A stretch of 64,000 nucleotides of DNA from Escherichia coli (GTDB lineage Bacteria > Pseudomonadota > Gammaproteobacteria > Enterobacterales > Enterobacteriaceae), in assembly GCF_050920415.1 (NCBI RefSeq), contig NZ_CP169309.1, one strand, 5' to 3'. Numbering within the stretch: the stretch's first letter is position 1; every line of letters starts with the position of its first letter. Shown here piece by piece: positions 769-55,874 of the stretch. The notes below the pieces were generated by a model. That model ran no database searches. It was not told the origin of the DNA and saw nothing but the letters and a program-made list of their open reading frames with translations. The position numbers and the translations under genes are program-made.

Positions 769-2025
769 ATGAGTGGACTCAAACAAGAACTGGGGCTGGC
801 CCAGGGCATCGGCCTGCTATCGACGTCATTATTAGGCACTGGCGTGTTTGCCGTTCCTGCGTTAGCTGCACTGGTAGCAGGCAATACCAGCCTGTGGGCG
901 TGGCCCGTTTTGATTATCTTAGTGTTCCCGATTGCAATTGTGTTTGCGATTCTGGGTCGCCACTATCCCAGTGCAGGCGGCGTCGCACACTTCGTCGGTA
1001 TGGCGTTTGGTTCGCGGCTTGAGCGAGTCACCGGCTGGTTATTTTTATCGGTCATTCCCGTGGGTTTGCCTGCCGCGCTACAAATTGCTGCCGGGTTCGG
1101 CCAGGCGATGTTTGGCTGGCATAGCTGGCAACTGTTGTTAGCAGAACTCGGTACGCTGGCGTTGGTGTGGTATATCGGTACTCGCGGTGCCAATTCCAGT
1201 GCTAATCTACAAACAGTTATTGCCGGACTTATCGTCGCGCTGATTGTCGCTATCTGGTGGGCGGGTGATATCCAACCTGCGAATATCCCCTTCCCTGCAC
1301 CTGGTAATATCGAACTTACCGGGTTATTTGCTGCGTTATCAGTGATGTTCTGGTGCTTTGTCGGTCTGGAAGCATTTGCCCATCTTGCCTCGGAATTTAA
1401 AAATCCAGAGCGTGATTTTCCTCGCGCGTTGATGATTGGTCTGCTGCTGGCAGGATTAGTCTACTGGGGCTGTACGGTAGTCGTCTTACACTTCGACGCC
1501 TACGGTGAAAAAATGGCAGCGGCAGCATCGCTTCCAAAAATTGTGGTGCAGCTGTTCGGTGTAGGGGCGTTATGGATTGCCTGCGTGATTGGCTATCTGG
1601 CCTGCTTTGCCAGTCTCAACATTTATATACAGAGTTTCGCCCGCCTGGTCTGGTCACAAGCGCAACATAATCCTGACCACTACCTGGCACGCCTCTCTTC
1701 TCGTCATATTCCGCGTAATGCCCTCAATGCGGTGCTCGGCTGCTGCGTGGTGAGCACGTTGGTGATTCATGCTTTAGAGATCAATCTGGACGCACTTATC
1801 ATCTATGCCAATGGCATCTTTATTATGATTTATCTGTTATGCATGCTGGCAGGCTGTAAATTATTGCAAGGACGTTATCGACTACTGGCGGTGGTTGGCG
1901 GGCTGTTATGCGTTCTGTTACTGGCAATGGTCGGCTGGAAAAGTCTCTATGCGCTGATCATGCTGGCGGGGTTATGGCTGTTTCTGCCAAAACGAAAAAC
2001 GCCGGAAAATGGCATAACCACATAA
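769..2025 (+). CDS. yjeH: Amino-acid exporter of the APC superfamily (YjeH, 418 aa)
   Basis: Polytopic membrane ORF; start taken at ATG 769 (MSGLKQELGLAQ...) inside the longer ORF 709-2025; conserved position between groS and fxsA. Confidence 0.85.
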   Translation: MSGLKQELGLAQGIGLLSTSLLGTGVFAVPALAALVAGNTSLWAWPVLIILVFPIAIVFAILGRHYPSAGGVAHFVGMAFGSRLERVTGWLFLSVIPVGLPAALQIAAGFGQAMFGWHSWQLLLAELGTLALVWYIGTRGANSSANLQTVIAGLIVALIVAIWWAGDIQPANIPFPAPGNIELTGLFAALSVMFWCFVGLEAFAHLASEFKNPERDFPRALMIGLLLAGLVYWGCTVVVLHFDAYGEKMAAAASLPKIVVQLFGVGALWIACVIGYLACFASLNIYIQSFARLVWSQAQHNPDHYLARLSSRHIPRNALNAVLGCCVVSTLVIHALEINLDALIIYANGIFIMIYLLCMLAGCKLLQGRYRLLAVVGGLLCVLLLAMVGWKSLYALIMLAGLWLFLPKRKTPENGITT

Positions 2026-2040
2026 TCCGGCGTTTCGGCA

Positions 2041-2517
2041 TTAATCCTGGCGATCGTCTTTATGATCAAGGCGGTCGCGCTCATCATCCTTTCGCTGGTA
2101 CTCACCATCAAAAGTATTACCGCCACCGGTCCCGGCGCTAAAACCGCCGCCTGGCATGCGAGAAAAGCGCAAATGCGGCATCAACTTCACCGTCAGATGC
2201 TTTTGCACCGGCGGTAATAAAAGCAGAAGGCCGAGGAAGTCGGTGAAAAAGCCCGGTAATAAAAGCAGCAAACCGGCAATGATCAGCGAAACACTTTTAA
2301 TCATCTCCGCCGCTGGGTTTTCACCTGCCGCCATTTTTTGCTGCATCAGCACGAAATTCTTAAAGCCCTGGTTACGTACCAGTGACATACCGATAACTGA
2401 CGTGAATATAACCAGCACGAGGGTCAGCAATACCCCCAATACATGGGCAACCTGAATAAAGATTGAAATCTCAATATAGACATAAAGGAAAATGGCAATA
2501 AAAGGTAACCAGCGCAA
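2041..2517 (-). CDS. fxsA: FxsA inner-membrane protein (158 aa)
   Basis: ORF MRWLPFIAIFLYVYIEISIFIQVAHVLG... with acidic C-terminal tail; position next to aspA. Confidence 0.85.
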   Translation of the reverse strand: MRWLPFIAIFLYVYIEISIFIQVAHVLGVLLTLVLVIFTSVIGMSLVRNQGFKNFVLMQQKMAAGENPAAEMIKSVSLIIAGLLLLLPGFFTDFLGLLLLLPPVQKHLTVKLMPHLRFSRMPGGGFSAGTGGGNTFDGEYQRKDDERDRLDHKDDRQD

Positions 2518-2853
2518 AGGTTTCTCCTGTAATAGCAGCCGGTTAAACCCGGCTACCTGAATGGGTTGCGAATCGCGTTCAGCTTATATTGTGGTCATTA
2601 GCAAAATTTCAAGATGTTTGCGCAACTATTTTTGGTAGTAATCCCAAAGCGGTGATCTATTTCACAAATTAATAATTAAGGGGTAAAAACCGACACTTAA
2701 AGTGATCCAGATTACGGTAGAAATCCTCAAGCAGCATATGATCTCGGGTATTCGGTCGATGCAGGGGATAATCGTCGGTCGAAAAACATTCGAAACCACA
2801 TATATTCTGTGTGTTTAAAGCAAATCATTGGCAGCTTGAAAAAGAAGGTTCAC

Positions 2854-4290
2854 ATGTCAAACAACATTCGTATCGAAGAAGATCTGTTGGGTACCAGGGA
2901 AGTTCCAGCTGATGCCTACTATGGTGTTCACACTCTGAGAGCGATTGAAAACTTCTATATCAGCAACAACAAAATCAGTGATATTCCTGAATTTGTTCGC
3001 GGTATGGTAATGGTTAAAAAAGCCGCAGCTATGGCAAACAAAGAGCTGCAAACCATTCCTAAAAGTGTAGCGAATGCCATCATTGCCGCATGTGATGAAG
3101 TCCTGAACAACGGAAAATGCATGGATCAGTTCCCGGTAGACGTCTACCAGGGCGGCGCAGGTACTTCCGTAAACATGAACACCAACGAAGTGCTGGCCAA
3201 TATCGGTCTGGAACTGATGGGTCACCAGAAAGGTGAATATCAGTACCTGAACCCGAACGACCATGTTAACAAATGTCAGTCCACTAACGACGCCTACCCG
3301 ACCGGTTTCCGTATCGCAGTTTACTCTTCCCTGATTAAGCTGGTAGATGCGATTAACCAACTGCGTGAAGGCTTTGAACGTAAAGCTGTCGAATTCCAGG
3401 ACATCCTGAAAATGGGTCGTACCCAGCTACAGGACGCAGTACCGATGACCCTCGGTCAGGAATTCCGCGCTTTCAGCATCCTGCTGAAAGAAGAAGTGAA
3501 AAATATTCAACGTACCGCTGAGCTGCTGCTGGAAGTTAACCTTGGCGCAACAGCAATCGGTACTGGTCTGAACACGCCGAAAGAGTACTCTCCGCTGGCA
3601 GTGAAAAAACTGGCTGAAGTCACTGGCTTCCCATGCGTACCGGCTGAAGACCTGATCGAAGCGACCTCTGACTGCGGCGCTTATGTTATGGTTCACGGCG
3701 CGCTGAAACGCCTGGCTGTGAAGATGTCCAAAATCTGTAACGACCTGCGCTTGCTCTCTTCTGGTCCACGTGCCGGCCTGAACGAGATCAACCTGCCGGA
3801 ACTGCAGGCGGGCTCTTCCATCATGCCAGCTAAAGTAAACCCGGTTGTTCCGGAAGTGGTTAACCAGGTATGCTTCAAAGTCATCGGTAACGACACCACT
3901 GTTACCATGGCAGCAGAAGCAGGTCAGCTGCAGTTGAACGTTATGGAGCCGGTCATTGGCCAGGCTATGTTCGAATCCGTTCACATTCTGACCAACGCTT
4001 GCTACAACCTGCTGGAAAAATGCATTAACGGCATCACGGCTAACAAAGAAGTGTGCGAAGGTTACGTTTACAACTCTATCGGTATCGTTACTTACCTGAA
4101 CCCGTTCATCGGTCACCACAACGGTGACATCGTGGGTAAAATCTGTGCCGAAACCGGTAAGAGTGTACGTGAAGTCGTTCTGGAACGCGGTCTGTTGACT
4201 GAAGCGGAACTTGACGATATTTTCTCCGTACAGAATCTGATGCACCCGGCTTACAAAGCAAAACGCTATACTGATGAAAGCGAACAGTAA
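2854..4290 (+). CDS. aspA: Aspartate ammonia-lyase (aspartase, 478 aa)
   Basis: [30 protein letters not shown]... fumarase/aspartase family with [10 protein letters not shown] signature; start at ATG 2854 within ORF 2809-4290. Confidence 0.95.
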
Positions 4291-4313
4291 TCGTACAGGG
4301 TAGTACAAATAGA

Positions 4314-4344
4314 GAAGGCACGTCAGATGACGTGCCTTTTTTCT
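4314..4344 (+). terminator. Rho-independent terminator after aspA
   Basis: Inverted repeat aaggcacgtc / gacgtgcctt followed by a T-run. Confidence 0.6.
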
Positions 4345-4407
4345 TGTGAGCAGTAACTTAAAAATAACAATCTAATATCAACTTGTTAAAAAACAAGGAA
4401 GGCTAAT

Positions 4408-5709
4408 ATGCTAGTTGTAGAACTCATCATAGTTTTGCTGGCGATCTTCTTGGGCGCCAGATTGGGGGGAATAGGTATTGGTTTTGCAGGCGGATTGGGG
4501 GTGCTGGTTCTTGCCGCTATTGGCGTTAAACCCGGTAACATCCCGTTCGATGTCATTTCCATTATCATGGCGGTTATCGCCGCTATTTCTGCCATGCAGG
4601 TTGCTGGCGGTCTGGACTATCTGGTTCATCAGACAGAAAAGCTGCTGCGCCGTAACCCGAAATACATCACGATCCTCGCACCGATCGTGACCTATTTCCT
4701 GACAATCTTTGCTGGTACTGGCAACATCTCTCTGGCAACGCTGCCTGTTATCGCTGAAGTTGCGAAGGAACAAGGCGTTAAACCGTGCCGTCCGCTGTCT
4801 ACTGCAGTGGTATCCGCGCAGATTGCGATCACCGCATCGCCAATCTCAGCGGCCGTGGTTTACATGTCTTCCGTAATGGAAGGTCATGGCATCAGCTACC
4901 TCCATCTGCTCTCCGTGGTCATCCCGTCCACCTTGCTGGCGGTTCTGGTGATGTCCTTCCTGGTCACTATGCTGTTCAACTCCAAACTCTCTGACGATCC
5001 GATTTATCGCAAGCGTCTGGAAGAAGGCCTCGTTGAACTGCGCGGTGAAAAGCAGATTGAAATCAAATCCGGTGCAAAAACGTCCGTCTGGCTGTTCCTG
5101 CTGGGCGTAGTTGGCGTGGTTATCTATGCAATCATCAACAGCCCAAGCATGGGTCTGGTTGAAAAACCGCTGATGAACACCACCAACGCAATCCTGATCA
5201 TCATGCTCAGCGTTGCAACTCTGACCACCGTTATCTGTAAAGTCGATACCGACAACATCCTCAACTCCAGCACCTTCAAAGCAGGTATGAGCGCCTGTAT
5301 TTGTATCCTGGGTGTTGCGTGGCTGGGCGATACTTTCGTTTCCAACAACATCGACTGGATCAAAGATACCGCTGGTGAAGTGATTCAGGGTCATCCGTGG
5401 CTGCTGGCCGTCATCTTCTTCTTTGCTTCTGCTCTGCTGTACTCTCAGGCTGCAACCGCAAAAGCACTGATGCCGATGGCTCTGGCACTGAACGTTTCTC
5501 CGCTGACCGCTGTTGCTTCTTTCGCTGCGGTGTCTGGTCTGTTCATTCTGCCGACCTACCCGACGCTGGTTGCTGCGGTACAGATGGATGACACGGGTAC
5601 TACCCGTATCGGTAAATTCGTCTTCAACCATCCGTTCTTCATCCCGGGTACTCTGGGTGTTGCCCTGGCCGTTTGCTTCGGCTTCTTGCTGGGTAGCTTC
5701 ATGCTGTAA
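4408..5709 (+). CDS. dcuA: Anaerobic C4-dicarboxylate transporter DcuA (433 aa)
   Basis: Membrane ORF with DcuA/DcuB family motifs; downstream of aspA as in the aspA-dcuA operon. Confidence 0.93.
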   Translation: MLVVELIIVLLAIFLGARLGGIGIGFAGGLGVLVLAAIGVKPGNIPFDVISIIMAVIAAISAMQVAGGLDYLVHQTEKLLRRNPKYITILAPIVTYFLTIFAGTGNISLATLPVIAEVAKEQGVKPCRPLSTAVVSAQIAITASPISAAVVYMSSVMEGHGISYLHLLSVVIPSTLLAVLVMSFLVTMLFNSKLSDDPIYRKRLEEGLVELRGEKQIEIKSGAKTSVWLFLLGVVGVVIYAIINSPSMGLVEKPLMNTTNAILIIMLSVATLTTVICKVDTDNILNSSTFKAGMSACICILGVAWLGDTFVSNNIDWIKDTAGEVIQGHPWLLAVIFFFASALLYSQAATAKALMPMALALNVSPLTAVASFAAVSGLFILPTYPTLVAAVQMDDTGTTRIGKFVFNHPFFIPGTLGVALAVCFGFLLGSFML

Positions 5710-22451: not shown

Positions 22452-23792
22452 ATGTTATTTACTATCCAACTTATCATAATACTGATATGTCTGTTTTATG
22501 GTGCCAGAAAGGGCGGTATCGCGCTGGGTTTATTAGGCGGTATCGGCCTGGTCATTCTGGTCTTTGTCTTCCACCTTCAGCCAGGTAAACCACCGGTTGA
22601 TGTCATGCTGGTTATCATTGCGGTGGTGGCGGCATCGGCGACCTTGCAAGCTTCGGGCGGTCTTGATGTCATGCTGCAAATTGCCGAGAAGCTGCTGCGC
22701 CGCAATCCGAAATATGTCTCCATTGTCGCACCGTTTGTAACCTGCACGCTGACCATTCTTTGCGGTACGGGCCACGTGGTTTACACCATTCTGCCGATCA
22801 TCTACGACGTTGCTATTAAGAACAACATCCGTCCGGAACGTCCGATGGCGGCAAGTTCTATCGGTGCACAGATGGGGATTATCGCAAGCCCAGTGTCGGT
22901 TGCGGTCGTATCTCTGGTTGCGATGCTGGGTAATGTCACCTTTGATGGTCGCCATCTTGAGTTCCTCGACCTGCTGGCAATCACCATTCCATCGACGTTA
23001 ATCGGTATCCTGGCGATCGGTATCTTCAGTTGGTTCCGCGGTAAAGATCTGGATAAAGATGAAGAGTTCCAGAAATTCATCTCCGTACCGGAAAACCGTG
23101 AGTATGTTTACGGTGATACCGCGACGCTGCTGGATAAAAAACTGCCGAAAAGCAACTGGCTGGCAATGTGGATCTTCCTCGGGGCAATCGCTGTAGTTGC
23201 ACTTCTTGGTGCTGATTCGGACCTGCGTCCATCCTTCGGTGGCAAACCGCTGTCGATGGTACTGGTTATTCAGATGTTTATGCTGCTAACCGGAGCGCTG
23301 ATTATTATCCTGACCAAAACCAATCCCGCGTCTATCTCAAAAAACGAAGTCTTCCGTTCCGGTATGATCGCCATCGTGGCGGTGTACGGTATCGCATGGA
23401 TGGCGGAAACCATGTTCGGTGCGCATATGTCTGAAATTCAGGGCGTACTGGGTGAAATGGTGAAAGAGTATCCGTGGGCCTATGCCATTGTTCTGCTGCT
23501 GGTTTCCAAGTTTGTAAACTCTCAGGCCGCGGCGCTAGCGGCGATTGTTCCGGTCGCGCTGGCGATCGGCGTTGACCCGGCATACATCGTGGCTTCAGCA
23601 CCGGCTTGCTATGGTTATTACATCCTGCCGACTTATCCGAGCGACCTGGCAGCGATTCAGTTTGACCGTTCCGGCACCACCCACATCGGTCGCTTCGTCA
23701 TCAACCACAGCTTTATTCTGCCGGGGTTGATTGGTGTGAGCGTATCGTGCGTCTTCGGCTGGATCTTCGCTGCGATGTACGGGTTCTTATAA
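22452..23792 (+). CDS. dcuB: Anaerobic C4-dicarboxylate (fumarate/succinate) antiporter DcuB (446 aa)
   Basis: Paralogue of dcuA in this window (shared motifs [14 protein letters not shown]); upstream of fumB. Confidence 0.93.
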
Positions 23793-23869: not shown

Positions 23870-25516
23870 ATGTCAAACAAACCCTTTATCTACCAGGCAC
23901 CTTTCCCGATGGGGAAAGACAATACCGAATACTATCTACTCACGTCCGATTACGTTAGCGTTGCCGACTTCGACGGCGAAACAATCCTGAAAGTGGAACC
24001 AGAAGCCCTGACTCTGCTGGCGCAGCAAGCCTTCCACGACGCTTCTTTCATGCTCCGCCCGGCACACCAGAAACAGGTTGCTGCAATTCTTCACGATCCA
24101 GAAGCCAGCGAAAACGACAAGTACGTGGCGCTGCAATTCTTAAGAAACTCAGAAATCGCCGCCAAAGGCGTGCTGCCAACCTGCCAGGATACCGGCACCG
24201 CGATCATCGTCGGTAAAAAAGGTCAGCGCGTGTGGACCGGCGGCGGTGATGAAGAAGCGCTGTCGAAAGGCGTCTATAACACCTATATCGAAGATAACCT
24301 GCGCTATTCACAGAATGCGGCGCTGGACATGTACAAAGAGGTCAACACCGGCACTAACCTGCCTGCGCAAATCGACCTGTACGCGGTAGATGGCGATGAG
24401 TACAAATTCCTCTGCGTCGCCAAAGGCGGTGGCTCTGCCAATAAAACGTATCTCTACCAGGAAACCAAAGCCCTGCTGACTCCCGGCAAACTGAAAAACT
24501 TCCTCGTTGAGAAAATGCGTACCCTCGGTACTGCAGCCTGCCCGCCGTACCATATCGCGTTTGTGATTGGCGGTACGTCTGCGGAAACCAACCTGAAAAC
24601 CGTCAAGTTAGCAAGCGCTCACTATTACGATGAACTGCCGACCGAAGGGAACGAACATGGTCAGGCGTTCCGAGATGTCCTGCTTGAACAGGAACTGCTG
24701 GAAGAGGCCCAGAAACTCGGCCTTGGCGCGCAGTTTGGCGGTAAATACTTCGCGCACGACATCCGCGTGATCCGTCTGCCACGTCACGGCGCATCCTGCC
24801 CGGTAGGTATGGGCGTCTCCTGCTCCGCTGACCGTAACATTAAAGCGAAAATCAACCGCGAAGGTATCTGGATCGAAAAACTGGAACACAATCCAGGCCA
24901 GTACATTCCACAAGAACTGCGTCAGGCTGGTGAAGGCGAAGCGGTGAAAGTCGACCTTAACCGCCCGATGAAAGAGATCCTCGCCCAGCTTTCGCAATAC
25001 CCGGTATCCACCCGTTTGTCGCTCACCGGCACTATTATCGTGGGTCGCGATATTGCACATGCCAAGCTGAAAGAGCTGATTGACGCCGGTAAAGAACTGC
25101 CGCAGTACATCAAAGATCACCCGATCTACTACGCGGGTCCGGCGAAAACGCCTGCCGGTTATCCATCAGGTTCACTTGGCCCAACCACCGCAGGTCGTAT
25201 GGACTCCTACGTGGATCTGCTGCAATCCCACGGCGGCAGCATGATCATGCTGGCGAAAGGTAACCGCAGTCAGCAGGTCACCGACGCGTGTCATAAACAC
25301 GGCGGCTTCTACCTCGGTAGTATCGGCGGTCCGGCGGCGGTACTGGCGCAGCAGAGCATCAAGCATCTGGAATGCGTCGCTTATCCGGAGCTGGGTATGG
25401 AAGCTATCTGGAAAATCGAAGTAGAAGATTTCCCGGCGTTTATCCTGGTCGATGACAAAGGCAACGACTTCTTCCAGCAAATCGTCAACAAACAGTGCGC
25501 GAACTGCACTAAGTAA
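23870..25516 (+). CDS. fumB: Class I (Fe-S) fumarate hydratase FumB (548 aa)
   Basis: [36 protein letters not shown]...; assigned as fumB rather than fumA by linkage to dcuB. Confidence 0.93.
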
Positions 25517-25638: not shown

Positions 25639-26289
25639 ATGACCCGCACACTCAAGCCGTTAATTCTTAACACCGGCGCACTGGCGCTAACGTTAATCCT
25701 GATTTATACCGGCATTTCGGCCAATGACAAACTCACCTGGCTGATGGAAGTGACACCGGTGATTATTGTCGTGCCGCTACTGCTTGCCACCGCTAAACGT
25801 TATCCGTTAACGCCGCTGCTCTATACGCTCATTTTCTTTCACGCCATCATCCTGATGGTCGGCGGGCAATACACCTACGCGAAAGTCCCCGTTGGTTTTG
25901 AGGTGCAGGAATGGCTGGGGTTGAGCCGTAATCCGTATGACAAGCTGGGGCATTTTTTCCAGGGGCTGGTGCCTGCACTGGTGGCGCGAGAAATTCTCGT
26001 TCGCGGGATGTACGTGCGCGGACGTAAAATGGTGGCGTTTCTGGTCTGCTGCGTGGCGCTGGCGATAAGCGCGATGTATGAATTAATCGAGTGGTGGGCA
26101 GCGCTGGCAATGGGTCAGGGAGCGGATGATTTTCTCGGTACCCAGGGCGACCAATGGGACACACAATCCGATATGTTCTGCGCGCTGCTTGGTGCATTAA
26201 CTACGGTGATATTCCTTGCTCGCTTTCATTGCCGCCAGCTACGGCGCTATGGCTTAATCACCAGAGCGCCGGAAGCGATTACCTCTTAA
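25639..26289 (+). CDS. yjdF: Inner-membrane protein YjdF (DUF2238-like)
   Basis: Multi-TM ORF in the conserved position next to fumB; stop TAA at 26287-26289 overlaps the melA stop. Confidence 0.7.
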   Translation: MTRTLKPLILNTGALALTLILIYTGISANDKLTWLMEVTPVIIVVPLLLATAKRYPLTPLLYTLIFFHAIILMVGGQYTYAKVPVGFEVQEWLGLSRNPYDKLGHFFQGLVPALVAREILVRGMYVRGRKMVAFLVCCVALAISAMYELIEWWAALAMGQGADDFLGTQGDQWDTQSDMFCALLGALTTVIFLARFHCRQLRRYGLITRAPEAITS

Positions 26290-27641
26290 CGGTGTAACCA
26301 GCCTGGCAGCCAGTCGCCGTGGGCGGCAATCAGGTCGTCAATAAGAGCATAGATTTCATCAATGCCCAGCACGGCAGCGGTATGTGGGTCCATCATCGCG
26401 GCATGGTAAACACGGTCGCGATTTTCTGTGAGAATGGCTTCCGTCAGCAGCGTCTGTACGTTGATATTGGTTTGCATCAGGGCGGCCAGATGCGAAGGTA
26501 GCGTACCGACTTTGGTCGGCTGAATGCCATTAGCATCAACTAAACAGGCCACTTCCACGCAACATCCTTGTGGCAGGTTATCAATCAAACCATCGTTACG
26601 GACGTTGCCATAAATCACACTCGGCTCGCCAGTCCAGATAGCGTTCATGATTGTGCTGGCATATTCCCGTGACGGTTTAATATCAATCCGGGAGGCGTTC
26701 TTATACTCCTCCAGCTCTTTATGCCAGTTTGCCAATTGTTCGACGCAGCGTTTCGGGTACTCATCCAGCGGCACTTTATAACGCTCAATCAAATCCTCAC
26801 GACCAGGCTTAATAAACCACGGTGTGTATTCAGCAAAATGTTCTGACGATTCCGTGACGAAGTAGCCCAGCTTTTTGAACATTTCATAACGCACAATATT
26901 CTGGCAGCGAGTATTGCCATGAATATTCGGCTTCGGTGCCTGCCCTGCGTCATACGCTGCCAGCAGTTCTGGGTAGAGATTCACGTAACTGCCGTCGGCG
27001 GTTTTGCGCTCCAGTTCCAGGTAAAACGCCATATGGTTGATACCCGCGCAACGGTAACGCAACGTAGCTGGGTCGATATTGAGATCACGCGCCAGCTCTT
27101 CCGCCGTTCCCTGCACCGAATGGCACAGCCCTACCTGTTTGATATGCGGATAGCGGGCATACATCGCCCAGGTATTCATCGCCATTGGGTTAACATAGTT
27201 GAGCATAGTGGCATCGGGGCAGACTTCCGTCATGTCCTCGCAAATTTGCCACAGGTGCGGAATGGTACGTAGCGCGCGCATAATACCGCCCGGCCCCAAC
27301 GTATCGGCAATGGTTTGTTCCAGACCGTGGCGCTTACAGACCTCAAAATCAGTCACCGTGCAAGGTTCATAACCGCCAATCTGAAATGCCACTACGACAA
27401 AATCGGCATCCTGTAAGGCTTCTTTCTGTTGGGTGTGGCAGGTGATTTTGCCACTGGCCCCCGCTGAATCCATCAGCTTGCGCACCACAATGTGCGACTC
27501 TTCCAGGCGGATGGGATCAATGTCCATCAGGGCAATATGCGCCGTTTTTAGCGCCTCGCGATGGAACACATCACCAAGAATATTTTTAACGAAAATCGTC
27601 GAACCAGCGCCGATAAATGTAATTTTAGGTGCAGACATCAT
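26286..27641 (-). CDS. melA: Alpha-galactosidase MelA (GH4 family, 451 aa)
   Basis: MMSAPKITFIGAGSTIFVKNILGDV... N-terminal Rossmann GAGS motif typical of NAD/Mn-dependent family 4 glycosidases; divergent from melR. Confidence 0.93.
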   Translation of the reverse strand: MMSAPKITFIGAGSTIFVKNILGDVFHREALKTAHIALMDIDPIRLEESHIVVRKLMDSAGASGKITCHTQQKEALQDADFVVVAFQIGGYEPCTVTDFEVCKRHGLEQTIADTLGPGGIMRALRTIPHLWQICEDMTEVCPDATMLNYVNPMAMNTWAMYARYPHIKQVGLCHSVQGTAEELARDLNIDPATLRYRCAGINHMAFYLELERKTADGSYVNLYPELLAAYDAGQAPKPNIHGNTRCQNIVRYEMFKKLGYFVTESSEHFAEYTPWFIKPGREDLIERYKVPLDEYPKRCVEQLANWHKELEEYKNASRIDIKPSREYASTIMNAIWTGEPSVIYGNVRNDGLIDNLPQGCCVEVACLVDANGIQPTKVGTLPSHLAALMQTNINVQTLLTEAILTENRDRVYHAAMMDPHTAAVLGIDEIYALIDDLIAAHGDWLPGWLHR

Positions 27642-27923
27642 GCAGATCTCCTGGCTTGCTTGAATAACTTCATCATGGCAGGCGAATCTGCAGAAAACCT
27701 CCGGCTTCCAGGCTGAGCATTCCCATTAACTCAGATCCTGTGTGAAGCATCAGAAAATCTGAGTTTATGGGAATAAATTAGCTGAAAAGCAGAGTTTTCG
27801 GCCTCATGGTACTCGGATGATCCCTTCGCCCCTCAGGCAAGAGGGCGAAAACCGTGCTCCCACTCGCAGTCATATTCCTACACTCCTGCCATAATTCTGA
27901 TATTCCAGGAAAGAGAGTCATCC
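27642..27923. promoter_or_regulatory. Divergent melR / melA promoter region
   Basis: Intergenic region between divergent melA and melR; established location of MelR and CRP sites; sites not individually resolved. Confidence 0.5.
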
Positions 27924-28832
27924 ATGAATACAGATACTTTTATGTGTAGCAGCGACGAAAAACAGACCCGCAGTCCGCTGTCGCTGTATTCGGAATACCA
28001 GCGGATGGAGATTGAGTTTCGCGCACCGCATATCATGCCCACCAGCCACTGGCATGGTCAGGTCGAAGTGAATGTGCCTTTCGATGGCGATGTGGAATAC
28101 CTGATCAACAATGAAAAAGTGAGTATCAATCAGGGACATATCACGCTGTTCTGGGCCTGTACACCGCACCAACTAACAGATACCGGAACCTGTCAGAGCA
28201 TGGCGATTTTTAATCTGCCGATGCATCTGTTTCTCTCCTGGCCGCTGGATAAAGACCTGATTAACCACGTCACTCACGGCATGGTGATTAAATCACTGGC
28301 GACACAGCAACTTAGCCCGTTTGAAGTGCGCCGCTGGCAGCAGGAATTGAACAGTCCGAACGAGCAAATTCGCCAGCTCGCCATTGATGAAATTGGCCTG
28401 ATGCTCAAGCGATTTAGCCTCTCTGGCTGGGAACCGATTCTGGTCAATAAAACCTCGCGCACACACAAAAACAGCGTCTCGCGCCATGCGCAATTTTATG
28501 TCAGCCAGATGCTGGGCTTTATTGCCGAAAACTATGATCAGGCGCTGACCATCAACGATGTGGCTGAGCACGTCAAACTTAACGCCAACTATGCAATGGG
28601 GATATTCCAGCGGGTCATGCAATTGACGATGAAACAGTACATTACCGCGATGCGCATCAACCACGTTCGCGCGTTACTGAGCGATACCGATAAAAGTATT
28701 CTCGATATTGCCCTGACGGCAGGCTTTCGTTCGAGTAGCCGTTTTTACAGCACGTTCGGCAAATATGTCGGCATGTCACCGCAACAATACCGCAAACTTA
28801 GCCAACAGCGCCGCCAGACGTTTCCCGGCTAA
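27924..28832 (+). CDS. melR: AraC-family melibiose operon activator MelR (302 aa)
   Basis: C-terminal AraC-type double HTH (…DIALTAGFRSSSRFYSTFGKYVGMSPQQYR); divergent from melA. Confidence 0.9.
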   Translation: MNTDTFMCSSDEKQTRSPLSLYSEYQRMEIEFRAPHIMPTSHWHGQVEVNVPFDGDVEYLINNEKVSINQGHITLFWACTPHQLTDTGTCQSMAIFNLPMHLFLSWPLDKDLINHVTHGMVIKSLATQQLSPFEVRRWQQELNSPNEQIRQLAIDEIGLMLKRFSLSGWEPILVNKTSRTHKNSVSRHAQFYVSQMLGFIAENYDQALTINDVAEHVKLNANYAMGIFQRVMQLTMKQYITAMRINHVRALLSDTDKSILDIALTAGFRSSSRFYSTFGKYVGMSPQQYRKLSQQRRQTFPG

Positions 28833-29027: not shown

Positions 29028-31298
29028 ATGATGAAAGTATTAATTGTTGAAAGCGAGTTTCTCCATCAGGACACCTGGGTCGGTAACGCCGTTGAGCGTC
29101 TGGCAGGGGCTTTAAGCCAGCAAAATGTTACCGTGATTAAATCCACCTCCTTTGATGATGGCTTTGCCATTCTCTCTTCAAACGAAGCCATTGACTGCCT
29201 GATGTTCAGCTATCAAATGGAACATCCGGACGAACATCAAAACGTCAGACAATTGATCGGTAAGCTTCATGAGCGCCAACAAAACGTGCCGGTCTTCCTG
29301 TTGGGCGATCGGGAAAAAGCCCTCGCCGCAATGGACCGAGATCTGCTGGAGCTTGTCGATGAATTCGCCTGGATTCTGGAAGATACCGCCGACTTTATCG
29401 CCGGACGCGCCGTTGCCGCAATGACCCGCTACCGCCAGCAGCTGTTGCCGCCACTGTTCAGCGCGCTGATGAAATATAGCGACATCCATGAATATTCCTG
29501 GGCAGCGCCAGGCCACCAGGGCGGCGTTGGCTTTACCAAAACACCCGCCGGACGTTTCTACCATGACTACTATGGTGAAAATCTGTTCCGCACCGACATG
29601 GGCATCGAACGGACTTCCCTCGGTTCTTTGCTTGACCATACTGGCGCATTTGGCGAAAGCGAAAAATATGCCGCACGCGTATTTGGTGCCGATCGCTCCT
29701 GGTCGGTAGTCGTCGGTACTTCCGGCTCTAACCGTACCATCATGCAGGCTTGCATGACCGATAACGATGTAGTGGTCGTTGACCGTAACTGCCATAAATC
29801 CATCGAACAAGGCTTGATGCTGACAGGCGCGAAACCGGTCTACATGGTGCCAAGCCGCAACCGCTACGGCATTATCGGGCCAATTTATCCGCAGGAAATG
29901 CAACCTGAAACCTTGCAGAAGAAAATCAGTGAAAGCCCGCTGACCAAAGACAAAGTCGGGCAAAAACCGTCTTACTGCGTGGTGACCAACTGCACCTATG
30001 ACGGCGTGTGTTATAACGCTAAAGAAGCGCAGGATCTGCTGGAAAAAACTTCCGATCGTCTGCACTTTGACGAAGCCTGGTACGGCTATGCACGTTTCAA
30101 CCCGATCTATGCCGATCACTATGCCATGCACGGTGAACCTGGCGATCACAACGGTCCTACCGTTTTCGCCACCCACTCAACCCACAAACTGCTGAATGCG
30201 CTGTCACAGGCCTCTTACATTCATGTGCGTGAAGGTCGTGGGGCGATTAACTTCTCCCGCTTTAATCAGGCATACATGATGCATGCCACCACCTCCCCGC
30301 TGTATGCCATCTGTGCATCTAACGACGTGGCGGTGTCGATGATGGACGGCAACAGTGGCCTGTCACTGACCCAGGAAGTGATCGACGAAGCGGTTGATTT
30401 CCGTCAAGCGATGGCACGGCTGTATAAAGAGTTCACCCATGACGGTAGCTGGTTCTTCAAACCGTGGAACAAAGAAGTGGTCACCGATCCACAAACCGGC
30501 AAAACCTACGACTTTGCTGACGCGCCAACCAAACTGCTGACCACCGTTCAGGATTGCTGGGTAATGCATCCGGGCGAAAGCTGGCACGGCTTCAAAGATA
30601 TTCCGGATAACTGGAGTATGCTCGACCCAATTAAAGTCAGCATTCTCGCACCGGGAATGGGTGAAGATGGTGAACTGGAAGAAACCGGTGTTCCGGCGGC
30701 GCTGGTCACAGCCTGGCTTGGTCGCCACGGCATTGTGCCTACCCGTACCACTGACTTCCAAATTATGTTCCTGTTCTCTATGGGCGTGACCCGTGGGAAA
30801 TGGGGAACTCTGGTTAACACCCTTTGCTCCTTCAAACGCCACTATGATGCCAACACACCGCTGGCGCAGGTGATGCCGGAACTTGTTGAACAATATCCTG
30901 ACACTTACGCGAACATGGGGATTCACGATCTGGGTGACACCATGTTTGCCTGGCTGAAAGAAAACAACCCTGGCGCACGGTTGAACGAAGCCTATTCCGG
31001 CCTGCCGGTGGCGGAAATCACCCCGCGTGAAGCGTACAACGCAATTGTCGATAACAATGTCGAACTGGTATCCATTGAAAATCTGCCTGGACGCATCGCG
31101 GCAAACTCAGTTATCCCGTATCCGCCAGGAATCCCGATGCTACTGTCTGGTGAAAACTTCGGCGATAAAAACAGTCCACAGGTAAGTTATTTACGCTCCC
31201 TGCAATCCTGGGACCATCATTTCCCTGGATTTGAACACGAAACTGAAGGGACTGAAATTATTGACGGTATTTACCACGTCATGTGTGTGAAAGCGTAA
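29028..31298 (+). CDS. adiA: Biodegradative (acid-inducible) arginine decarboxylase AdiA (~756 aa)
   Basis: Paralogue of cadA in this window (shared fold, STHKLL PLP motif); MMKVLIVESEFLHQDTWVGNAVERLA...; linked to adiY-adiC. Confidence 0.95.
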   Translation: MMKVLIVESEFLHQDTWVGNAVERLAGALSQQNVTVIKSTSFDDGFAILSSNEAIDCLMFSYQMEHPDEHQNVRQLIGKLHERQQNVPVFLLGDREKALAAMDRDLLELVDEFAWILEDTADFIAGRAVAAMTRYRQQLLPPLFSALMKYSDIHEYSWAAPGHQGGVGFTKTPAGRFYHDYYGENLFRTDMGIERTSLGSLLDHTGAFGESEKYAARVFGADRSWSVVVGTSGSNRTIMQACMTDNDVVVVDRNCHKSIEQGLMLTGAKPVYMVPSRNRYGIIGPIYPQEMQPETLQKKISESPLTKDKVGQKPSYCVVTNCTYDGVCYNAKEAQDLLEKTSDRLHFDEAWYGYARFNPIYADHYAMHGEPGDHNGPTVFATHSTHKLLNALSQASYIHVREGRGAINFSRFNQAYMMHATTSPLYAICASNDVAVSMMDGNSGLSLTQEVIDEAVDFRQAMARLYKEFTHDGSWFFKPWNKEVVTDPQTGKTYDFADAPTKLLTTVQDCWVMHPGESWHGFKDIPDNWSMLDPIKVSILAPGMGEDGELEETGVPAALVTAWLGRHGIVPTRTTDFQIMFLFSMGVTRGKWGTLVNTLCSFKRHYDANTPLAQVMPELVEQYPDTYANMGIHDLGDTMFAWLKENNPGARLNEAYSGLPVAEITPREAYNAIVDNNVELVSIENLPGRIAANSVIPYPPGIPMLLSGENFGDKNSPQVSYLRSLQSWDHHFPGFEHETEGTEIIDGIYHVMCVKA

Positions 31299-43187: not shown

Positions 43188-43335
43188 CGGTAGGCCGGAT
43201 AAGGCGCTCGCGCCGCATCCGGCTACGGTGCCGACTGCCTGATGCGACGCTCGCGCGTCTTATCAGGCCTACAAATTCTCGCACCATCCGGCAACGGTGC
43301 CTAATGCGACGCTTACCGAGTCTTATCAGCCCCCG
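43188..43335. repeat. REP / BIME cluster (about three REP units in alternating orientation)
   Basis: Units gtaggccggataaggcgctcgcgccgcatccggc, gcctgatgcgacgctcgcgcgtcttatcaggcctac and a third partial unit match the E. coli REP consensus. Confidence 0.75.
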
Positions 43336-55304: not shown

Positions 55305-55517
55305 TCAATTTTTCCGCTGCTCTATTGCCGTAATCGCCTCCACGCGTTGTTGATGACGACCGCCTTCGTACTGCGCGCCCAGCCACGCATCCACAATCAT
55401 TTTTGCCAGTTCGAGGCCAACCACTCGTGAACCAAAAGCCAGTGCAACTTCACTGGCGTAATGCGGATAATCAGTGCGCTCTGACGACCTGGTTTCTTTA
55501 TCAATCCCCTCACTCAT
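55305..55517 (-). pseudogene. rpiB: Decayed remnant of ribose-5-phosphate isomerase B / allose-6-phosphate isomerase (rpiB)
   Basis: 70-codon frame MSEGIDKETRSSERTDYPHYASEVALAFGSRVVGLELAKMIVDAWLGAQYEGGRHQQRVEAITAIEQRKN retains the RpiB/LacAB SxxRTDYP and C-terminal GGRHQQR segments but lacks the N-terminal MKIAxGxDHxG segment and the central GILICGTGxGxSIAANK active-site segment. Confidence 0.55.
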
Positions 55518-55874
55518 TGACTATGAATAAAAGGCTGGCACAGCAACGCAGAATCCTGCGGTGCCAGCGACATGACCGCCCATTGCTCCGGTACGTTTTT
55601 TAATAAGAAACACCGGTTGCATTGATTAATTGTGCTCAGTATTTGCCGAAGTACAATATATATAATAAATATATAAAACACCTCATATTATTTACAGAGA
55701 TAATGAATTCGCGTACTTTTCCCTCTTCAGCACAAATGCCTAATAAAATGGCTCGTTCCGCTCACACTTCCACTTATTAAAGTCGCAAATTCCCAATTAT
55801 GATAACGCCAGCTTTAAATGACGTATTTTGCATGGATTACATATTTACGACATAAATGATAAATGGAGATTTAT

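Follow-up and report, generated by a model that had tools for sequence, protein, structure and literature searches.

The closest described system to the locus considered here is the melR/melAB regulon of Escherichia coli K-12 (b4118-b4120), in which melR, encoding an AraC-type activator, is divergent from melA, and melA is followed by the cotranscribed melB, encoding the Na+/melibiose symporter. In K-12 MG1655 the order is melA, melB (1422 bp), yjdF, as a preliminary description of the present locus had correctly stated, and the regulon is flanked by adiA on one side and by yjdF-fumB-dcuB on the other. We examined the corresponding locus in a 64-kb stretch of E. coli contig NZ_CP169309.1 (hereafter, the window), where melR and melA are orthologous to those of K-12, the flanks are the same, and the order of genes is dcuB-fumB-yjdF-(melA)-melR-adiA. 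However, melB, its leader, the terminator, and the downstream repetitive extragenic palindromic (REP) element, all present in K-12, are missing, and melA is not followed by a permease gene as it is in the canonical regulon. Neither tblastn with K-12 MelB nor low-stringency blastn with K-12 melB and its spacers recovered melB anywhere in the 64 kb; the sole match of the deleted K-12 DNA to the window is a 34-nt REP-like stretch at 43190. The absence of melB beside intact melA and melR genes, first noticed in the preliminary description, is confirmed by these searches and by the open reading frames (ORFs). Junction anatomy, distribution, polarity, and constraint on melA and melR, all computed here, together with the published phenotypes of two strains (ATCC 11775 and UTI89), make it very probable that the mel locus of the window represents an old Escherichia allele produced by natural deletion, and that carriers of this allele need not be melibiose-negative.

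The other two genes of the regulon are intact. In the window, melA (26286..27641, minus strand; RefSeq WP_000986594.1, product alpha-galactosidase) is an intact GH4 alpha-galactosidase gene whose 451-aa product matches K-12 MelA along its full length at 98.9% identity, and it is now the sole remaining gene of the former melAB operon. The divergent melR-melA control region (27642..27923, 282 bp) is equal in length to that of K-12 and colinear with it, with scattered substitutions and no indels. It is followed by melR (27924..28832, plus strand), encoding an intact 302-aa AraC-family activator with 99.7% identity to K-12 MelR, in the arrangement of the canonical regulon. On its other side, melA converges on yjdF (25639..26289, plus strand), an ORF for a DUF2238 inner-membrane protein in an extended form (RefSeq WP_000198764.1, from an identical sequence). 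The two coding sequences, stops included, share 4 bp: positions 26280-26289 read tacctcTTAA, in which TAA at 26287-26289 is the yjdF stop and TTA on the plus strand at 26286-26288 is the melA stop, with the shared TTAA at 26286..26289. Sequence and ORF list agree on this overlap, which had been reported before.

The tidiness of the overlap had been taken to mean exact endpoints with no intergenic DNA, and this does not survive alignment to K-12. While the melA flank does match K-12 up to the stop, with blastn homology starting exactly at the last base of the melA stop codon, homology on the yjdF side ends at 26262-26265, leaving 20-23 nt (26263/26266-26285) before the melA stop. The 23 nt that blastn leaves unaligned to K-12, AGAGCGCCGGAAGCGATTACCTC (26263..26285), are identified as a deletion junction and spacer remnant by the blastn endpoints, side-by-side sequences, a MAFFT multiple alignment, and outgroup spacers. 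In the MAFFT alignment the AGA of the remnant falls opposite GGA, the final sense codon of K-12 yjdF; additionally, GCGCCGGAA within it reads, in reverse complement, as TTCCGGCGC, the 3' arm of the hairpin found after the K-12 melA stop. The native yjdF stop is gone in the melB-less allele, and the remnant encodes a new YjdF tail, extending the frame by seven codons: the protein has 216 aa, as compared with 209 in K-12, with residues 1-208 homologous (96.6% identity to K-12) and the C-terminus changed from ...FGLITG to ...YGLITRAPEAITS (...ITRAPEAITS). The stop overlap exists because yjdF lost its own stop and gained these codons; it is a by-product of the yjdF frame crossing the spacer remnant, not the result of a precise ORF excision. 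Relative to K-12, the allele lacks ~1,622 bp (3311-4932 in the K-12 mel locus numbering, L001, where melA is 1912-3267 and melB 3370-4791) and, separately, 23 nt (3270-3292) just after the melA stop, for a net difference of 1,645 bp. Across species, most of the variation in the new eight-residue tail (RAPEAIT, then S or P) falls at third codon positions.

The same arrangement is widespread. Among 5,426 complete E. coli genomes, 5,413 of which have the locus, the 2.1-kb melA-yjdF stretch is contiguous in 1,267 and a 120-bp junction probe is matched by 1,262, such that junction carriers make up ~23% of the collection; melB is found in 4,136 (76%). The two classes (4,136 and 1,267) sum almost exactly to the number of genomes with the locus, a near-perfect split, which indicates that carriers have no melB elsewhere. 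A relocated melB was considered as an explanation and rejected on the basis of this clean division and of the lack of any trace in the window; melA and yjdF are normally adjacent in this lineage, as the preliminary description had allowed, though, to judge from the split, with no melB at another site. Carriers are natural isolates from humans, animals, food, and water. They include CFT073, UTI89, and the species type strain ATCC 11775 (all phylogroup B2), TUM13754, CLSC36, 042 (phylogroup D), and 2013C-4282, which is listed with EC42405 as a cryptic clade I strain (PMC10100065). By contrast, melB is present in K-12 (phylogroup A), SMS-3-5 (F), and strain 10153 (NZ_AP027191.1), and O157:H7 can be assigned to the melB+ class because its records match only the melA half of the junction probe.

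Within a collection of one genome per species, the same junction, set between diverged flanks, is found in E. whittamii, 'E. coli' SCPM-O-B-8794, and Escherichia sp. E1V33, while Escherichia sp. MOD1-EC7003 has melB. The melA-based scan of this collection returned no E. albertii, E. fergusonii, E. marmotae, or E. ruysiae; the E. coli representative was missing as well, and these absences are therefore not interpreted. Apart from an IS2 element in the latter, the window and E. coli MFDS1022581 (NZ_CP169399.1, isolated from food in Korea) match at 100% identity; after that genome, the closest relatives of the window are cryptic clade I strains, with 99.1% identity across the first 24 kb.

All carriers examined have the 23-nt junction in common, with few single-nucleotide polymorphisms (SNPs), and the stop overlap is TTAA or TTAG in the window and in all 11 other carriers examined. 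The window has the shared remnant, AGAGCGCCGGAAGC(G/A)A(T/C)(T/A)AC(C/A)(T/C)C, as well as the 23-nt indel that follows the melA stop. CFT073, UTI89, ATCC 11775, 042, and 2013C-4282 have the architecture and junction of the window, including the 4-bp overlap and the 216-aa YjdF, and differ from it by SNPs only, with flanks 2-5% diverged. The YjdF tail ends in ...ITS in the window and clade I and in ...ITP in B2 and D; in CFT073, yjdF is frameshifted.

These data bear directly on whether the deletion is artificial, the preliminary description having left the choice between an engineered and a natural event undecided. An engineered removal of melB from a laboratory strain by recombineering, whether scarless or FLP-excised, could claim in its favor only the visual tidiness of the TTAA overlap. 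No FLP recombinase target (FRT) site occurs in the window within 3 mismatches; the flanks are 96-97% identical to K-12, not identical; the junction contains undesigned remnant sequence together with the second 23-nt indel; and the same junction recurs in ~1,262 natural isolates as well as in the representatives of three other Escherichia species. The probability of an engineered origin is practically nil, and it is excluded by the distribution of the junction. The natural half of the choice stands, and the same junction was indeed found in natural lineages (B2, D, cryptic clade I, and other Escherichia).

Polarity is indicated by related genera. Citrobacter, Salmonella, Kluyvera, and Cedecea keep, in several of these relatives, the melA-melB-yjdF-fumB synteny. 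In all melB+ relatives examined for the spacer (several Citrobacter species, two Salmonella enterica subspecies, Kluyvera, and Cedecea), a conserved hairpin, CGCCGGG-loop-CCCGGCG, lies just 3' of the melA stop and is followed by a conserved melB leader. The melB-less allele keeps only the 3' arm of this hairpin and the TCTG that follows it, and is therefore derived by deletion from a melB+ ancestor. The opposite polarity, with the melB-less state primordial and melB inserted between melA and yjdF in K-12-like E. coli, would accommodate the much lower polymorphism of melB as compared with its flanks, and the presence of the allele in the early-branching B2, D, and cryptic clades I and II. However, it is scarcely credible given that melR-melA-melB-yjdF-fumB synteny is common to Citrobacter, Salmonella, and Kluyvera, and that the fragment of the conserved spacer hairpin held by the allele, with its trailing TCTG, implies a melB+ ancestor. 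For the deep ancestor a primordial melB-less state is contradicted; a secondary re-gain of melB within E. coli may have occurred.

On the deletion reading, the ancestral order would have been melR-melA-melB-yjdF-fumB, from which ~1.62 kb would have been lost, beginning ~43 nt past the melA stop and ending at the stop codon of yjdF, with a separate 23-nt loss taking the 5' arm of the post-melA hairpin. Together, the two losses would have removed melB, its leader, the terminator, and the REP element. Deprived of its stop, yjdF would then read through a 20-nt spacer remnant, acquire seven extra codons, and end on the TAA that overlaps the melA stop. The resulting allele would have been inherited in B2, at least part of D, cryptic clade I, and other Escherichia lineages.

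Divergence among carriers points to the age of the allele. Synonymous divergence (dS) of melA between carriers is 0.10-0.23 when both belong to E. coli or clade I and rises to 0.31-0.51 in comparisons with the other species; the 200-bp windows adjacent to the junction have diversities of 3.4% and 5.4% among carriers; and the remnant shows as many as 5 differences in 35 positions (window versus E. whittamii). These values indicate that the allele is old and did not spread laterally in recent times. A young deletion that had reached B2, D, cryptic clade I, and other species through homologous recombination would be in keeping with the mosaic flanks and with the identical MelA shared by melB+ WP8-S17-ESBL-08 and melB-less CFT073, from which we conclude that recombination at the mel locus is frequent. 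Yet such a spread predicts the opposite of the observed diversity beside the junction, of the changes accumulated in the remnant, and of melA dS reaching 0.46-0.51, and is very unlikely. Between melB-less lineages, the ratio of nonsynonymous to synonymous divergence (dN/dS) is 0.010-0.037 for melA and 0-0.05 for melR, which shows that both genes have stayed under strong purifying selection in the absence of melB. Detection of MelA protein in extraintestinal pathogenic E. coli has been published (PMC5013306).

Loss of melB with retention of melA is not confined to Escherichia. In Citrobacter, melB has been lost independently in two groups (L016/L022 and L028/L030/L072), with melR and melA retained and melA converging on yjdF-fumB. 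C. youngae CCUG 30791 and Citrobacter spp. MGH106, Cu233, wls619, and Res13 resemble the window in having melR and melA without melB; their junctions, however, have other breakpoints, with a 54-70-nt spacer that includes a REP-like palindrome, a yjdF that keeps its own stop, and no stop overlap. Raoultella and the Klebsiella oxytoca group (K. oxytoca, K. spallanzanii; six loci examined) likewise have melR-melA with no adjacent melB homolog, and melB loss with melA retention looks recurrent in enterobacteria. Within E. coli, WP5-S18-ESBL-07 (NZ_AP022159.1, 4606279-4608167) has an independent ~15-kb deletion that joins a shortened crfC to the final 165 bp of melB and removes rdcB, proP, basRS, eptA, adiCY, adiA, melR, melA, and most of melB. 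The Citrobacter losses, whose junctions retain a REP-like palindrome, and this different crfC-melB deletion could be taken as signs of a hotspot at which melB is repeatedly and independently deleted, for example between the REP or hairpin palindromes that flank it. As an account of the Escherichia allele this is very unlikely: the Escherichia carriers examined all share the 23-nt remnant, the second indel, and the extension of yjdF, a combination that independent events are not expected to reproduce.

LacY transports melibiose, and melibiose induces lac. With melR and melA still functional, alpha-galactosides such as melibiose could enter melB-less cells through another permease. The most likely route is uptake by LacY followed by MelR-dependent induction of melA and hydrolysis by MelA. 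The type strain, DSM 30083T (= ATCC 11775), carries the allele, yet both melibiose and methyl-alpha-galactoside are oxidised by it on Biolog PM01, its MEL reaction on API 20E is positive, and M9 medium with melibiose supports its growth (PMC4334874). In UTI89, also a carrier, lactose, melibiose, and methyl-alpha-galactoside were the only 3 of 192 carbon sources that needed functional lacY (bioRxiv 10.64898/2025.12.03.691977). The window strain would be expected to behave in the same way. The melibiose-negative phenotype that had been predicted from the absence of melB is thus not supported for the window allele, at least for Lac+ carriers. A published figure of 75% of E. coli fermenting melibiose (PMC11546641) is close to the 76% of genomes with melB; this match was not relied on, as the two tested carriers are melibiose-positive.

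Several points weigh against the reading of the window as an old deletion allele whose carriers can still use melibiose. LacY has been shown to act as the substitute permease for UTI89 only, in a preprint, and the window does not contain lac. That the window's own genome has no melB at another site we infer from the split seen across the collection and from the complete genome that is nearly identical to it. Because the allele diverged after the deletion event, the breakpoint cannot be fixed to the nucleotide, and a position between ACC and AGA or one between TCTG and GTGAT would fit; the 23-nt and 1.62-kb losses could, moreover, represent one event or two. A terminator search at the junction found no intrinsic terminator-like site there, and predicted folding of the junction is not significant on the plus strand (z -1.45) and modest on the minus strand (z -2.3).

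The melB gene itself is unexpectedly uniform within the species. Identity to K-12 is at least 99% for melB in 4,127 of the 4,136 genomes that have it, as compared with 2,926 of 5,399 for melA and 1,637 of 5,413 for yjdF, and nucleotide diversity is 0.7% for melB, 1.6-2.0% for melA, and 3.6-4.0% for yjdF. Between K-12 and SMS-3-5, dS is 0.027 for melB and 0.089 for melA; between K-12 and MOD1-EC7003, it is 0.015 for melB, 0.134 for melA, and 0.148 for fumB. Across the six melB+ Escherichia loci compared, synonymous polymorphism is 3-10 times lower in melB than in melA, yjdF, and fumB. Between genera, on the other hand, melB is the fastest-evolving gene of the locus, with nonsynonymous divergence (dN) of 0.08-0.10 and a proportion of synonymous differences (pS) of 0.75-0.79, at which synonymous sites are saturated. 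Polymorphism relative to divergence is 55/224 for melA and 11/347 for melB (Fisher p = 5e-12 in a crude 2x2 test of the Hudson-Kreitman-Aguade type). This combination of uniformity within the species and rapid change between genera suggests a recent common ancestor of the melB+ haplotype, moved by recombination. Presence and absence of melB may accordingly represent an ancient polymorphism across Escherichia, in which the melB-less state of cryptic clades I and II, B2, and part of D is the long-standing one for E. coli sensu lato, while the melB+ K-12-like haplotype is young and has recently been spread by homologous recombination across phylogroups and even into the MOD1-EC7003 species cluster; we offer this history tentatively and with somewhat less than even confidence. 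As to yjdF (25639-26262 and orthologs), its nucleotide diversity (3.3-4.0%) is unusually high for E. coli, and it is less than 95% identical to K-12 in 404 of the 5,413 genomes.

A distant horizontal origin of E. coli melB was also considered and rejected, since the MelB/MelA protein divergence ratio for K-12 pairs (2.46) falls within the range of other genus pairs (1.19-3.88). The sole odd sign with respect to such an origin is a lower GC content at third codon positions (GC3), 0.495 for melB versus 0.592 for melA in K-12; in other genera the difference between the two genes is mostly no more than ~0.03, with exceptions of 0.055-0.08 in which melB is mostly the higher.

The feature is real and its explanation ordinary: natural gene-content polymorphisms of this type have long been known, and this one is annotated in over 1,200 RefSeq genomes. 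A negative association of B2 with melibiose-pathway genes has been published (Touchon et al., PMC7314097), and the difference in gene content is therefore already in the literature; our literature search for a paper combining melB, melibiose, and phylogroup B2 and describing the junction directly found pathway-level statements only. Roughly one in four sequenced E. coli strains, with the type strain among them, lacks melB, and K-12 is not a universal reference for mel. Calls of melibiose negativity made from melB absence, as in metabolic models and annotation pipelines, are wrong for Lac+ strains because LacY can bring melibiose to the retained MelA. The low diversity of melB between hypervariable flanks poses a small population-genetic question about the loss and regain of a catabolic gene by recombination; beyond such bookkeeping, the melB-less allele matters little.

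The syntenic flanks are completed by three genes on the plus strand. An anaerobic C4-dicarboxylate transporter gene, dcuB (22452..23792), is identified from its ORF and from the RefSeq annotation of the identical sequence in NZ_CP169399.1; fumB (23870..25516) encodes a class I fumarase with 99.6% amino acid identity to K-12 FumB; and adiA (29028..31298), encoding arginine decarboxylase, is identified from its ORF and annotation. The IS2 copy that distinguishes MFDS1022581 lies in the dcuR-dcuB spacer, at window position ~21988, and comprises ~1.33 kb with a 5-bp target duplication; the window is without it, and must accordingly derive either from a source that is very close to MFDS1022581 but distinct from it or from a state that preceded the insertion.

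The melR-melA control region varies considerably among carriers. In B2, the equivalent of 27642-27923 is a strongly diverged allele (three loci compared), with substitutions clustered around 1700-1770 and 1864-1867 in the K-12 numbering. Diversity of this region is 12% among melB-less E. coli, and the window allele is nearer to that of K-12.

A second catabolic operon is also absent from the window. At 55443-55650, between the yjdP/rpiB remnant and yjcS, 208 bp stand in place of the D-allose operon alsRBACEK together with the 3' portion of rpiB, a segment that measures 6.8 kb in ATCC 11775; in the identical record, rpiB is annotated as a pseudogene with an internal stop.

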